Assembly: GCA_020137815.1 (NCBI GenBank)
Contig: CM035361.1
Span: forward strand, 6,626,595-6,690,594
Origin: Hormiphora californensis
Lineage: Eukaryota; Animalia; Ctenophora
Direction of reading: 5' to 3'
DNA length: 64,000 nucleotides
Of the stretch, positions 28,001-37,000 are shown in pieces. Under the pieces are notes generated by a model. It was not told the origin of the DNA and did no database searches. It was given only the letters and a program-made list of their open reading frames with translations. Position 1 is the stretch's first letter. Every line of letters starts with the position of its first letter. The translations under genes were made by a program, and so were the position numbers.

Positions 28001-31000
28001 TAAACTCATTGAATGACTACCACACACAGCTTTAAGAGTACACCTGGAGTTTTTCATCATCGTTTGTCCAACTAAACGATGATGCAAAACGTCAATTCAA
28101 TACAGTTTTAATCAATACCGCACATTACTATCATCCCCGCTGACTTGATTCACATAGCTAATCATCTATAATGATCATGGCTTGATTTAGTACTATTATA
28201 TCGTCGTCTATCTTGTTAATGATCATGGCTTGATTGGAAGAGATTATGAAAGGCGTTGAAAGAGTATAATTTCAAAGAATAAAGGGAGTAAAGGGATCCC
28301 TTATTTGAGAATGAGAGGTCTCACTACAAGCTAGACCCCCCTCCCCCCTCGAAAGTTATATTTTCCTTTCCCAGGTACTCGGAAACAGGGACTCTCCTCC
28401 ACCCCCTCCCTCCTCCACCCACGCCCCCAAGCAAAACAATTATATTCCCCTTTCCTTCCCAGGTACTCGGAAACAGGAACTCTCCTCCATGGCAACAGTC
28501 CCGCTCCCACCCTCCTCCACCCCTCCCTCCTCCACCCCACCACCCCAAGCAAAACATTATATTCCCCTTTCCTTCCCAGGTACTCCGAAACAGGAACTCT
28601 CCTCCATGGCAACAGTCCCGCTCCCACCCTCCTCCACCCCCTCCCTCCTCCACCCACCACCCCAAGCAAAACAATTATATTCCCCTTTCCTTCCCAGGTA
28701 CTCGGAAACAGGAACTCTCCTCCATGGCAACAGTCCCGCTCCCACCCTCCTCCACCCCCTCCCTCCTCCACCCCTCCCCCAAGCAAAACAATTATATTCC
28801 CCTTTCCTTCCCAGGTACTCCGAAACAGGAACTCTACTCCATGGCAACAGTCCCGCTCCCACCCTCCTCCACCCCCTCCCTCCTCCACCCACCACCCCAA
28901 GCAAAACAATTATATTCCCCTTTCCTTCCCAGGTACTCGGAAACAGGAACTCTCCTCCATGGCAACAGTCCCGCTCCCACCCTCCTCCACCCCCTCCCTC
29001 CTCCACCCCTCCCCCAAGCAAAACAATTATATTCCCCTTTCCTTCCCAGGTACTCGGAAACAGGAACTCTCCTCCATGGCAACAGTCCCGCTCCCACCCT
29101 CCTCCACCCCCTCCCTCCTCCACCCCTCCCTCCTCCACCCACCACCCCAAGCAAAACAATTATATTCCCCTTTCCTTCCCAGGTACTCGGAAACAGGAAC
29201 TCTCCTCCATGGCAACAGTCCCGCTCCCACCCTCCTCCACCCCCTCCCTCCTCCACCCACCACCCCAAGCAAAACAATTATATTCCCCTTTCCTTCCCAG
29301 GTACTCGAAACAGGAACTCTCCTCCATGGCAACAGTCCCGCTCCCACCCTCCTCCACCCCCTCCCTCCTCCACCCACCCTCCCCCAAGCAAAACAATTAT
29401 ATTCCCCTTTCCTTCCCAGGTACTCGGAAACAGGAACTCTCCTCCATGGCAACAGTCCCGCTCCCACCCTCCTCCACCCCCTCCCTCCTCCACCCACCAC
29501 CCCAAGCAAAACAATTATATTCCCCTTTCCTTCCCAGGTACTCGGAAACAGGAACTCTCCTCCATGGCAACAGTCCCGCTCCCACCCTCCTCCACCCCCT
29601 CCCTCCTCCACCCCACCCTCCCCAAGCAAAACAATTATATTCCCCTTTCCTTCCCAGGTACTCGGAAACAGGAACTCTACTCCATGGCAACAGTCCCGCT
29701 CCCACCCTCCTCCACCCCCTCCCTCCTCCACCCACCCCCCCAAGCAAAACAATTATATTCCCCTTTCCTTCCCAGGTACTCGGAAACAGGAACTCTACTC
29801 CATGGCAACAGTCCCGCTCCCACCCTCCTCCACCCCCTCCCTCCTCCACCCCACCCTCCCCCAAGCAAAACAATTATATTCCCCTTTCCTTCCCAGGTAC
29901 TCCGAAACAGGAACTCTCCTCCATGGCAACAGTCCCGCTCCCACCCTCCTCCACCCCCTCCCTCCTCCACCCACCCTCCCCCAAGCAAAACAATTATATT
30001 CCCCTTTCCTTCCCAGGTACTCGGAAACAGGAACTCTACTCCATGGCAACAGTCCCGCTCCCACCCTCCTCCACCCCCTCCCTCCTCCACCCACCCTCCC
30101 CCAAGCAAAACAATTATATTCCCCTTTCCTTCCCAGGTACTCGGAAACAGGAACTCTACTCCATGGCAACAGTCCCGCTCCCACCCTCCTCCACCCCCTC
30201 CCTCCTCCACCCACCCTCCCCAAGCAAAACAATTATATTCCCCTTTCCTTCCCAGGTACTCGGAAACAGGAACTCTCCTCCATGGCAACAGTCCCGCTCC
30301 CACCCTCCTCCACCCCCTCCCTCCTCCACCCACCCTCCCCAAGCAAAACAATTATATTCCCCTTTCCTTCCCAGGTACTCGGAAACAGGAACTCTACTCC
30401 ATGGCAACAGTCCCGCTCCCACCCTCCTCCACCCCCTCCCTCCTCCACCCACCCTCCCCAAGCAAAACAATTATATTCCCCTTTCCTTCCCAGGTACTCG
30501 GAAACAGGAACTCTCCTCCATGGCAACAGTCCCGCTCCCACCCTCCTCCACCCCCTCCCTCCCCCACCCACCTCCCCCAAGCAAAACAATTATATTCCCC
30601 TTTCCTTCCCAGGTACTCGGAAACAGGAACTCTACTCCATGGCAACAGTCCCGCTCCCACCCTCCTCCACCCCCTCCCTCCTCCACCCACCCTCCCAAGC
30701 AAAACAATTATATTCCCCTTTCCTTCCCAGGTACTCGAAACAGGAACTCTCCTCCATGGCAACAGTCCCGCTCCCACCCTCCTCCACCCCCTCCCTCCTC
30801 CACCCACCCTCCCCAAGCAAAACAATTATATTCCCCTTTCCTTCCCAGGTACTCGGAAACAGGAACTCTACTCCATGGCAACAGTCCCGCTCCCACCCTC
30901 CTCCACCCCCTCCCTCCTCCACCCACCCTCCCCAAGCAAAACAATTATATTCCCCTTTCCTTCCCAGGTACTCGGAAACAGGAACTCTACTCCATGGCAA

Positions 31001-34000: not shown

Positions 34001-37000
34001 CCCCCCCCAAGCAAAAAAATTTATATTCCCCTTTCCCTTCCCGGTCCAAAACAGGAATTCCTCCCGGAAAACAGCCCCCGCTCCCACCCTCCTCCACCCC
34101 CCCCTCCCCCACCCCCCCCAGCAAAACATTATTTCCCCTTTTCCCCCCCGGGTATCGGAAACGGAACTCTACCCCCGGGAAAACATCCCGCCCCCCCCTC
34201 CACCCCCTCCTCCTCCAACCACCACCCCAAAGCAAAACAATTATATTCCCTTTCCTTCCCAGGGTACTCTGAAACAGGGACTCTACTCCATGGAAACAGT
34301 CCCGCTCCCACCCTCCTCCACCCCCTCCCTCCTCCCACCCACCACCCCAAGCAAAAACAATTATATTCCCCTTTCCTTCCCAGGTACTCGGAAACAGGAA
34401 CTCTCCTCCATGGCACCAGTCCCGCTCCCACCCTCCTCCACCCCCTCCCTCCTCCACCCTCCCCCAAGCAAAAACAATTATATTCCCCTTTCCTTCCCAG
34501 GTACTCGGAAACAGGAACTCTCCTCCATGGCAACAGTCCCGCTCCCAACCCTCCTCCACCCCCCTCCCTCCTCCACCCATCACCCCCAAGCAAAACAATT
34601 ATATTCCCCTTTCCTTCCCAGGTACTCCGAAACAGGAACTCTCCTCCATGGCAACAGTCCCGCTCCCACCCTCCTCCACCCCCTCCCTCCCCCACCCCAC
34701 CCTCCCCCAAAGCAAAACAATTATATTCCCTTTCCTTCCCAGGTACTCGGAAACAGGAACTCTCCTCCATGGCAACAGTCCCCGCTCCCACCCTCCTCCA
34801 CCCCCTCCCTCCTCCACCCTCCCCCAAGCAAAACAATTATATTCCCCTTTCCTTCCCAGGTACTCGGAAACAGGAACTCTACTCCATGGCAACAGTCCCG
34901 CTCCCACCCTCCTCCACCCCCTCCCTCCTCCACCCTCCCCCAAGCAAAACAATTATATTCCCCTTTCCTTCCCAGGTACTCGGAAACAGGAACTCTACTC
35001 CATGGCAACAGTCCCGCTCCCACCCTCCTCCACCCCCCTCCCTCCTCCACCCACCACCCCCAAGCAAAACAATTATATTCCCCTTTCCTTCCCAGGTACT
35101 CGGAAACAGGAACTCTCCTCCATGGCAACAGTCCCCGCTCCCACCCTCCTCCACCCCCTCCCTCCCCCACCCTCCCCAAGCAAAACAATTATATTCCCCT
35201 TTCCTTCCCAGGTACTCCGAAACAGGAACTCTCCTCCATGGCAACAGTCCCGCTCCCACCCTCCTCCACCCCCCTCCCTCCTCCACCCACCACCCCCAAG
35301 CAAAACAATTATATTCCCCTTTCCTTCCCAGGTACTCCGAACAGGAACTCTCCTCCATGGCAACAGTCCCGCTCCAAACCCTCCTCCACCCCCCTCCCTC
35401 CTCCCACCACCACCCCAAGCAAAACAATTATATTCCCCTTTCCTTCCCAGGTACTCGGAACAGGAACTCTCCTCCATGGCAACAGTCCCGCTCCAACCCT
35501 CCTCCACCCCCTCCCTCCCCCACCCCACCACCCCAAGCAAAACAATTATATTCCCCTTTCCTTCCCAGGTACTCGGAAACAGGAACTCTACTCCATGGAA
35601 ACAGTCCCGCTCCCACCCTCCTCCACCCCCTCCCTCCTCCACCCTCCCCCAAGCAAAACAATTATATTCCCCTTTCCTTCCCAGGTACTCCGAAACAGGA
35701 ACTCTACTTCATGGCAACAGTCCCGCTCCCACCCTCCTCCACCCCCTCCCTCCTCCACCCCACCCCAAGCAAAACAATTATATTCCCCTTTCCTTCCCAG
35801 GTACTCGGAAACAGGAACTCTCCTCCATGGCAACAGTCCGCTCCCACCCTCCTCCACCCCCTCCCTCCTCCACCCTCCCCCAAGCAAAACAATTATATTC
35901 CCCCTTTCCTTCCCAGGTACTCGGAAACAGAACTCTACTCCATGGAAACAGTCCCGCTCCCACCCTCCTCCACCCCCTCCCTCCCCCACCCTCCCCCAAG
36001 CAAAACAATTATATTCCCCTTTCCTTCCCAGGTACTCGGAAACAGGAACTCTACTCCATGGAAACAGCCCCGCTCCAACCCTCCTCACAGACTCCATGAC
36101 GTCCACCATAACAGCTGGTAGTGAACACGGAACACCGCTAACCGAGATATTGTAAGTTCCTGCGTAAACACTGCTAATATAATACTGCGTATTCCTTGCA
36201 TAAAATCTGCAGATTTAAGAATCTATGGAGAAATCGGGTAGTATCTAAATTTCTCGAATACCTTTTGATTCGCAAAATTCAAAAGTGTTTGGGATCACTT
36301 GCGTGAATTAGATGTCTCATTTGGGCACTTTACTTCTAAGTTCTGACACTGGACAGTTCAATTCGAATTATTTCAAGTTGTTCCACCCAACAAGATTCAT
36401 AATGTTTTAAATTTAATGTTTCCCACTCAGGTTCATGATTCCGGATAACCTTGCAACAGAGCTACCACCAGGAAACAAAGATCAGGGCTTCCTATCAGTC
36501 GCAACCAAGGTCTTCTTCGATCAGGTATAGGGATGACCAAATATGGGTGTAGAGAATAGAGATGACCAAAATATAGGTTCAGTCAAACTTCGAGTTACCG
36601 GACCTCCATTTACCAACAAAATAAATTTCTCTATCTCTTTCTCAATTGATTTCACCCCGGGTTTTAACAATAATATTTCAGACTACCAATGTAATAAAGG
36701 AGATAATGTTAAACCGCGGAGAAATCAAGTGAGAAAGTTAACAAAACATCATTTCAGACTAAGAATGTTAAGGAGATCACGCTGGCACTCACTCTTCAGA
36801 ACATCTGCCACAAATATCTGATGACTCCCCGACCAGAAAACTATGCTCTTCAACTCATTGAGTTCTTCAACGTTCAGGTAACAAGGACAGAGTTACCATT
36901 GTTTTGAGGCCCAGTTGTGAAATTCAAGTGGTTAGGTTTTATGAGACATTTGCATGAACTACCACAAATAAAAAGTGGTTATCGCCGTTAAGCGGTAAAC

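Follow-up and report, generated by a model that had tools for sequence, protein, structure and literature searches.

A repeated splice acceptor in an ATG2-like gene

The 64,000-nucleotide stretch of DNA from the ctenophore Hormiphora californensis under study (the window; contig CM035361.1 of assembly GCA_020137815.1, positions 6,626,595 to 6,690,594, numbered here from its first letter) contains what appears to be an ATG2-like autophagy gene, one 11.9-kb intron of which holds a head-to-tail array of a single splice acceptor together with the start of the exon that follows it. Tandem Repeats Finder (TRF) places the repeat at 28350-36086, with a period of 119 and 64.1 copies, and tiling of the array from 28335 to 36086 (+ strand) resolves 65 copies, namely unit 0 at 28375, 63 internal units and the head of the real exon at 36032, with unit lengths of 115-121 bp. 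A preliminary description of this DNA, made from its letters, had reported a 7.7-kb array of repeated acceptors and exon starts in which the last unit alone completes the exon, and both points are borne out, the former by TRF and tiling and the latter by the observation that only the copy at 36032 reads in frame to a donor. Each unit is composed of a 55-nt exon head, a C-rich spacer of 26-33 nt (44 nt in one unit) and an intron tail of 34 nt with CAG at its end, and the strict acceptor anchor CCCAG/GTAC (the slash marks the splice junction) is present in 59 of the 65 copies.

The real exon (36032..36151, + strand) comprises 120 nt, runs from phase 2 to phase 2, begins with YSETGTLLHGNSPAPTLLTDSM and is in frame with both neighbours. 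Its predicted splice partner across the intron is the exon at 23978..24132 (+), which ends in phase 2 at a TAT/GTAAGT donor whose GT begins at 24133; on the other side follows the exon at 36431..36524 (+), whose acceptor and head are themselves repeated in other haplotypes. One reading frame runs through the exons at 22733-22827, 23978-24132, 36032-36151 and 36431-36524. The comparison with ATG2 comes from a search of six exons in the Protein Data Bank (PDB), where human ATG2A (8kbx, chain B) is matched at residues 1100-1129 by the exon at 38892..38992 (+; E=2e-4) and at residues 1214-1264 by the exon at 43832..44059 (+; E=4e-4), and more weakly at residues 822-847 by the exon at 21070..21232 (+), upstream of the array (its only hit, E=0.57). 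The exons so anchored are collinear in order, with 250 residues between anchors versus 278 in ATG2A. The remaining three (23978, 36758 and the repeated exon 36032) gave no ATG2A match in the PDB: the exon at 23978 matched designed repeat proteins only, which we have dismissed as chance, the exon at 36758 had no hit there, and the repeated exon had none in the PDB or in Pfam, which named none of the 12 host exons. A homologous-protein search with exon 21070 gave no hit among three candidates and an Atlas search no usable hit, while a search of representative proteins returned five, among which two unnamed fragments, 70% identical, join exons 42466 and 43832 and do not span the array junction. 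The gene model loses its frame beyond 41667, in poor sequence that probably lacks an exon, and is not traceable past about residue 1270 of ATG2A in the window; its splice junctions are predicted from sequence, that from 24132 to 36032 from frame and residue count.

The counts reported here were made on 48 good units, unit 0 and 15 noisy units having been excluded by position before counting. The noisy units (34-48, at 32391..34263, + strand) are error-ridden and served only as a control of noise. Unit 0, the boundary copy (28335..28462, +), is the most diverged of the array: its intron tail differs from that of the other units and its head ends at about 25 nt, probably shortened by a deletion between two CTCCTCCA motifs, and the letters of its spacer are found in short-read contigs at a depth of 18.7. 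The 34-nt intron tail is identical in 43 of the 48 good units, the other five varying in homopolymer length only, and no substitution in it was found across the 48. This homogeneity of the tail from unit to unit, beside a diverged unit 0, evidences concerted evolution within the cluster. Unit lengths ignore the reading frame, 14 of the 48 being divisible by 3 and 16 equal to 2 modulo 3, as by chance, and a clean unit contains no stop codon in any + frame.

Silent variation in the array and among exon alleles

Analysis of the exon heads against their majority sequence yielded the synonymous substitutions TCG to TCC (8 units), TCG to TCT (1), GGA to GGG (1), CTC to CTA (20), CTC to CTT (1), GGC to GGA (3) and CCC to CCA (2), and a single non-synonymous one, AAC to ACC, in one unit. 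The preliminary description had proposed a count of synonymous versus non-synonymous changes, and this count gives a clear excess of the former, amounting to 7 of the 8 distinct substitutions and to all four of those found in at least two units, for a chance share of 44/162 (27%; binomial P=6.6e-4 for 7 of 8). The noisy units, whose substitution list was transcribed by hand, provide a control for sequencing error and give 8 synonymous changes in 40 (Fisher P=5.8e-4 against the good units). The head of the real exon differs from the array majority at four positions, all of them third positions and all synonymous, as it carries CTA, GGA, AGC and CCA. The variable codons amount to 7 of 18 in the head, versus 0 of 11 variable triplets in the tail (P=0.026). 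Errors at homopolymer edges were considered as a cause of the silent excess and rejected, since a model in which an erroneous base copies its neighbour does not lift the chance share of silent changes (16/63). The excess at silent sites in the array is real.

Among the third-position changes that had been described as recurrent, TCG/TCC, CTC/CTA, GGC/GGA and CCC/CCA do recur, but AGT/AGC does not, AGC being found in none of the 48 good units and confined to the real exon and three noisy units. The one-base indels also described are represented by a 1-bp deletion which recurs in 4 of the 48 units but may be a consensus artefact, as it is not listed at ≥1% in the short-read contigs. A gradient toward the exon, another proposed check, could not be established: CTA and TCC are dispersed along the array (rank test for CTA, P=0.17), and GGA and CCA are restricted to units 49-63 (P=0.002; rank test inside these units, P=0.15), a restriction confounded by the different sequence quality of those units.

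Out of seven sequencing runs, six were compared with the window; X1-X4 derive from one sample (S1) and X5 and X6 from a second (S2). The first four are not independent of the window, as their sample may be its source, whereas the second sample shares only 17-19% of sampled words with it. Short-read contigs show the array in both samples, its depth being tens of times that of single-copy sequence; contig depth is not a copy number. Variants in contigs are listed only at least 31 letters from a contig end, so that none are listed in the head for a one-unit query. Unitigs of X3 with ends at a distance of 29-30 nt from positions 7 and 22 of the head carry 0, 1 and 2 differences at depths of 725, 384 and 233; the letters themselves are not visible, but these values indicate that both positions are genuinely polymorphic at high depth. 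Run X7, which we guess to be RNA, gave a single 45-nt piece at <90% identity and is uninformative either way on expression or splicing.

The real exon itself is matched without differences by single-copy contigs (X2, record 9), and in X1 the contigs over 35972-36900 separate two haplotypes, between which the unique 65 nt of the exon show five differences. When three exons are taken together, the listed differences from the window are synonymous in 19 of 19 cases, the chance expectation being 236/990 (24%), and the working alleles of the host gene therefore differ densely and silently. The density of silent changes is comparable in both comparisons, with 5 in the unique 65 nt between the X1 haplotypes versus 4 in the 55-nt head between array and exon. 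In X5, a head (record 17) continues into unique exon with a C at 36077, that is, with the CCC codon of the array majority; it also has a silent change at 36074, its three other differences not being among those listed.

Neighbouring splice sites carry arrays in some haplotypes which are absent from the window, contig depth again giving no copy number. In X5 from the second sample the donor end of the real exon is repeated (36110-36157, not repeated in the window), with loose ends at 36110 and 36157 and a depth of about 2250-2800 versus about 170. At the silent site 36140 there, each of the two states is several times deeper than single-copy sequence (1579 and 658 of 2237), and the same two states separate the two X1 haplotypes. 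The acceptor and head of the next exon (36428-36470) are likewise duplicated in X1, X2, X3 and X5 and not in the window, as evidenced by a joint of 36469 to 36428 in X5 and by loose ends at raised depth in X1, X2 and X5. A copy of this head, seen at a loose end, has two differences, both silent (ATT to ATC and CCG to CCT). One copy of the same head was observed joined to the C-rich spacer of the main array, as might follow from a switch of template from one of the two exon heads to the other.

Probable exchange with the coding exon and competing explanations

Beside these observations on structure, on the silent excess, on silent-only differences between alleles, on the array's occurrence in two divergent samples and on the arrays at neighbouring splice sites stands an interpretation to which we assign a probability of roughly 0.7, namely that the array exchanges sequence with the exon's working alleles, as a result of which no variants persist but those neutral for the protein. 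Mutation of an untranslated array would be about 73% non-synonymous, and the variants in the array must therefore have passed the filter of the exon. The preliminary description had put forward gene conversion with the coding exon, or the retention of older exon alleles, and this gains support from the silent-only allele differences and from record 17 of X5. A tandem duplication over the intron-exon boundary would have been amplified through slippage or unequal crossing-over; fast homogenisation within the array would include the head of the real exon, and occasional exchange with other haplotypes would bring in their silent variants, while variants that change amino acids would be purged because of leakage into the working exon. 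The spliceosome would use only the last acceptor, the one with a proper donor after it.

Toy simulations are in line with exchange under particular conditions. With exon exchange and some inter-allelic input, the synonymous share of recurrent variants was 0.73-0.94 in four settings, the matching regime being one of fast homogenisation within the array and little inter-allelic input. With the array cut off from the exon, the share was 0.39 and the array accumulated 10.8 amino-acid differences from the exon, and with no inter-allelic input there was less than one variant per array. These simulations show sufficiency only, because they consist of single runs with correlated samples in a regime chosen after a failure.

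A number of points weigh against exchange. A first simulation, with selection on the last copy only and heavy inter-allelic exchange, failed in all 12 settings (synonymous share of recurrent variants 0.27-0.55), and the matching regime, picked after that failure with one run per setting and correlated samples, gives 0.3-2.0 differences between exon and majority versus the four observed. No exchange event is directly observed, the heads of other alleles being mostly unreadable letter by letter, and the junction from 24132 to 36032 is predicted from frame and residue count. The AGC of the exon is missing from all good units, and the CTA gradient is not significant (P=0.17). CCA is at about single-copy depth in S1 (27 of 1348 and 184 of 1555) and units 58 and 59 are unconfirmed; as CCA is near single-copy and the 1-bp deletion unlisted, both may be errors of the window. 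Finally, the intron tail is invariant, although it should vary like the silent sites if whole units were exchanged; it may be under constraint because it serves as branch point and pyrimidine tract in splicing, or conversion may extend over the head only.

Such a limit on conversion tracts is shared by an unlikely alternative, in which units are copied one way from the current exon head or from heads of other alleles and then shifted upstream, while nothing is written back into the exon and the array is free of selection. The invariant tail fits tracts confined to the exon head, and the position of GGA and CCA in units 49-63 and the divergence of unit 0 are as such an archive would leave them; however, the 3' enrichment coincides with the change in sequence quality, CTA and TCC are scattered along the array, and a polar model reached at best 0.55 synonymous among recurrent variants (three settings, at slower rates). 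Less probable still is an artefact of assembly or polishing, which would have blended reads from two haplotypes and from the real exon into the units, mimicking silent variants. There are error-ridden units, 15 of the 63 internal ones, and other faults in the window such as a fold-back at 61.2-63.9 kb, and the single-copy CCA in S1 and the unlisted deletion point the same way. Yet in two samples the depth of the array is tens of times that of single-copy sequence and two sites are polymorphic at multi-copy depth, errors in this sequence are 80% non-synonymous, and mixing of haplotypes would still require silent-only differences between their arrays.

The silent bias could also arise if the units were translated, the acceptor of one unit and the CAG/GTAC donor of the next defining an exon joined to the real exon or to the ACAG at 36090. 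The open + frames of a clean unit are compatible with this, as are the fact that a 119-nt unit joined to 36091 stays in frame and the score of the native CAG/GTACTC donor (6.5, in the donor range). Nevertheless, spacer lengths are free, with 14 of 48 units equal to 0 and 16 to 2 modulo 3, chance-like, so that the reading frame is not preserved as in a coding tandem repeat, and silent variation is found in the head only, the tail, which would be coding too, having none; we consider translation improbable, marginally more so than the blending of reads.

The preliminary description had moreover seen in the CAG/GTAC sites possible ratchet points of recursive splicing, by which the intron would be removed stepwise. 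In each unit AG does adjoin GT within an 11.9-kb intron, and the GTAC donors that it named at 3730, 17254 and 18682 are present in the sequence, their use being deduced from frame only. Donors were scored with a leave-one-out matrix built from the 26 modelled in the window, which range from 2.9 to 10.7. The native CAG/GTACTC falls within that range (6.5); the donor regenerated after splicing from 24132 would be TAT/GTACTC, which has neither -1G nor +5G and, with a score of 1.1, is weaker than every modelled donor. A -1G is present in each of the 10 donors that have no +5G, the GTAC donors (three) among them, and all six lacking -1G are GTAAGT. A GT at the exon start is unremarkable, as 10 of 23 exons begin with it. 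In Drosophila (PMC8605326), ratchet points likewise lie within long introns, with a GT immediately after the AG; unlike here, they are single conserved sites with generally strong regenerated donors, weakened ones switching to inclusion of a cryptic exon, whereas the array offers the weakest donor scored, in a repeated coding exon start. Since skipped units are not translated, the ratchet reading also leaves the silent variation unexplained, and we regard it as the most improbable of all.

If the exchange model is true, such arrays are not inert: from them, recombination between a coding exon and the non-coding repeats of it could be counted, and they would offer a case in which to test whether untranslated DNA comes under selection by leaking into the exon. 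A broader proposal, which we hold tentatively and at somewhat less than even odds, is that 64 untranslated copies are under purifying selection via write-back and that in a hyperdiverse animal arrays come and go at many splice sites as local reservoirs of functional alleles of the exon, with the effect of more recombination and higher silent diversity at the ends of exons genome-wide. In any case, a silent-site bias in such repeats must not be taken as a sign of coding, and such arrays will distort variant calls at exon ends.

Known repeats over splice sites and other features of the window

The array is a 'mirage' minisatellite, a kind of repeat already known from amphioxus (lancelets; PMC3087553): a unit spanning the boundary, kept AG/GT splice signals and concerted evolution are all found here. 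In the passages on these repeats, they are described in the globins BflGb6 and BflGb9, in Adh3, in troponin C and in PGBD5 (PMC3087553, PMC3902484), splicing of BflGb6 being normal by the authors' RT-PCR (reverse transcription PCR; PMC3087553). As here, the 3' end of an intron and the following exon's 5' portion are tandemly repeated with their splice signals (PMC3087553), and concerted evolution with a diverged boundary copy, differences between haplotypes and involvement of both acceptor and donor boundaries are reported (PMC3087553, PMC3902484). The differences, as far as the same passages go, are that 65 near-identical copies are found here versus 3-6 in BflGb6 (PMC3087553), and that a silent-site excess is here measured and linked to allele data. 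In the BflGb6 alignment, viewed by eye and uncounted, there are several third-position differences plus some amino-acid changes (PMC3087553). Synonymous bias and exchange with the exon are not discussed in the mirage passages of the two papers (PMC3087553, PMC3902484), and our literature search, whose coverage excluded subscription journals and the original Adh3 description (Canestro 2002), which may bear on novelty, found no paper on either subject in such repeats. The kind of repeat is thus known, and this example is an unusually clear one, for which the evidence from alleles is uncommonly good. Just beyond the repeat breakpoint, still inside the real exon (36070-36090), there is a pyrimidine run followed by an acceptor-like ACAG, which is the element required by the published mirage intron-gain model.

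A minisatellite that repeats a splice site is also known from human F7, where a 37-bp variable number tandem repeat (VNTR) in intron 7 lies over the donor of exon 7 (PMC1557585). Its additional sites have a functional sequence and yet normally stay silent; there the donor side is affected and the first site is used, whereas in the present array it is the acceptor that is repeated, and splicing must use the last copy.

The intron of the array also contains, on the host strand, a nested sulfotransferase-like gene with its own stop (25440..27627, +; Pfam PF13469 below the cut-off, E=0.028 and 0.051), so that splicing poses a problem of choice: the donor at 24133 would have to pass a same-strand nested gene and 64 near-identical acceptors. 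At 25823-26130 an exon end and donor of this nested gene are duplicated once, the copy differing at neighbouring codons, amino-acid changes included. Further nested genes are a single-exon transporter of the major facilitator superfamily (MFS; 14288-16050, PF00083, E=2e-22), in a host intron on the same strand, and an opposite-strand gene with an Asp/Gly/Ser-rich repeat in another stretch of host intron (37266-38470). In its parallel nested genes and its high heterozygosity, this DNA is like what PMC8527503 describes for a ctenophore, a resemblance and nothing further.

Splice sites in the window are often spanned by repeats: of the 26 donors, 3 have a copy of their 16-base junction within 9 kb, as do 2 of the 24 acceptors, and none of 25 exon midpoints has such a copy. 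Exact junction copies occur for the donor at 44060 (9), the donor at 24133 (3) and the acceptor at 38892 (2); candidates picked by eye at 22733 and 38215 were not confirmed by the exact-copy test. At 1732-3560 there are 61 near-identical 30-bp units composed of an exon end and a GTAAGT donor, 56 of them identical and with substitutions on the intron side only, and at 44053-44441 a 32-bp repeat lies over the probable donor of the exon at 43832-44059. Elsewhere, a reverse-transcriptase-like stretch (47640-49170, by eye) within 46400-50330 has low-complexity AAAGCGCTTT-type repeats on either side of it. The fold-back at 61200-63900 (1174 identities) and a direct duplication of 55200-56020 and 60250-61080 (761 identities) lie in error-rich sequence and are probably assembly faults, and a 1-kb inverted-repeat element is found at 40125-41119 within a 47-bp array.

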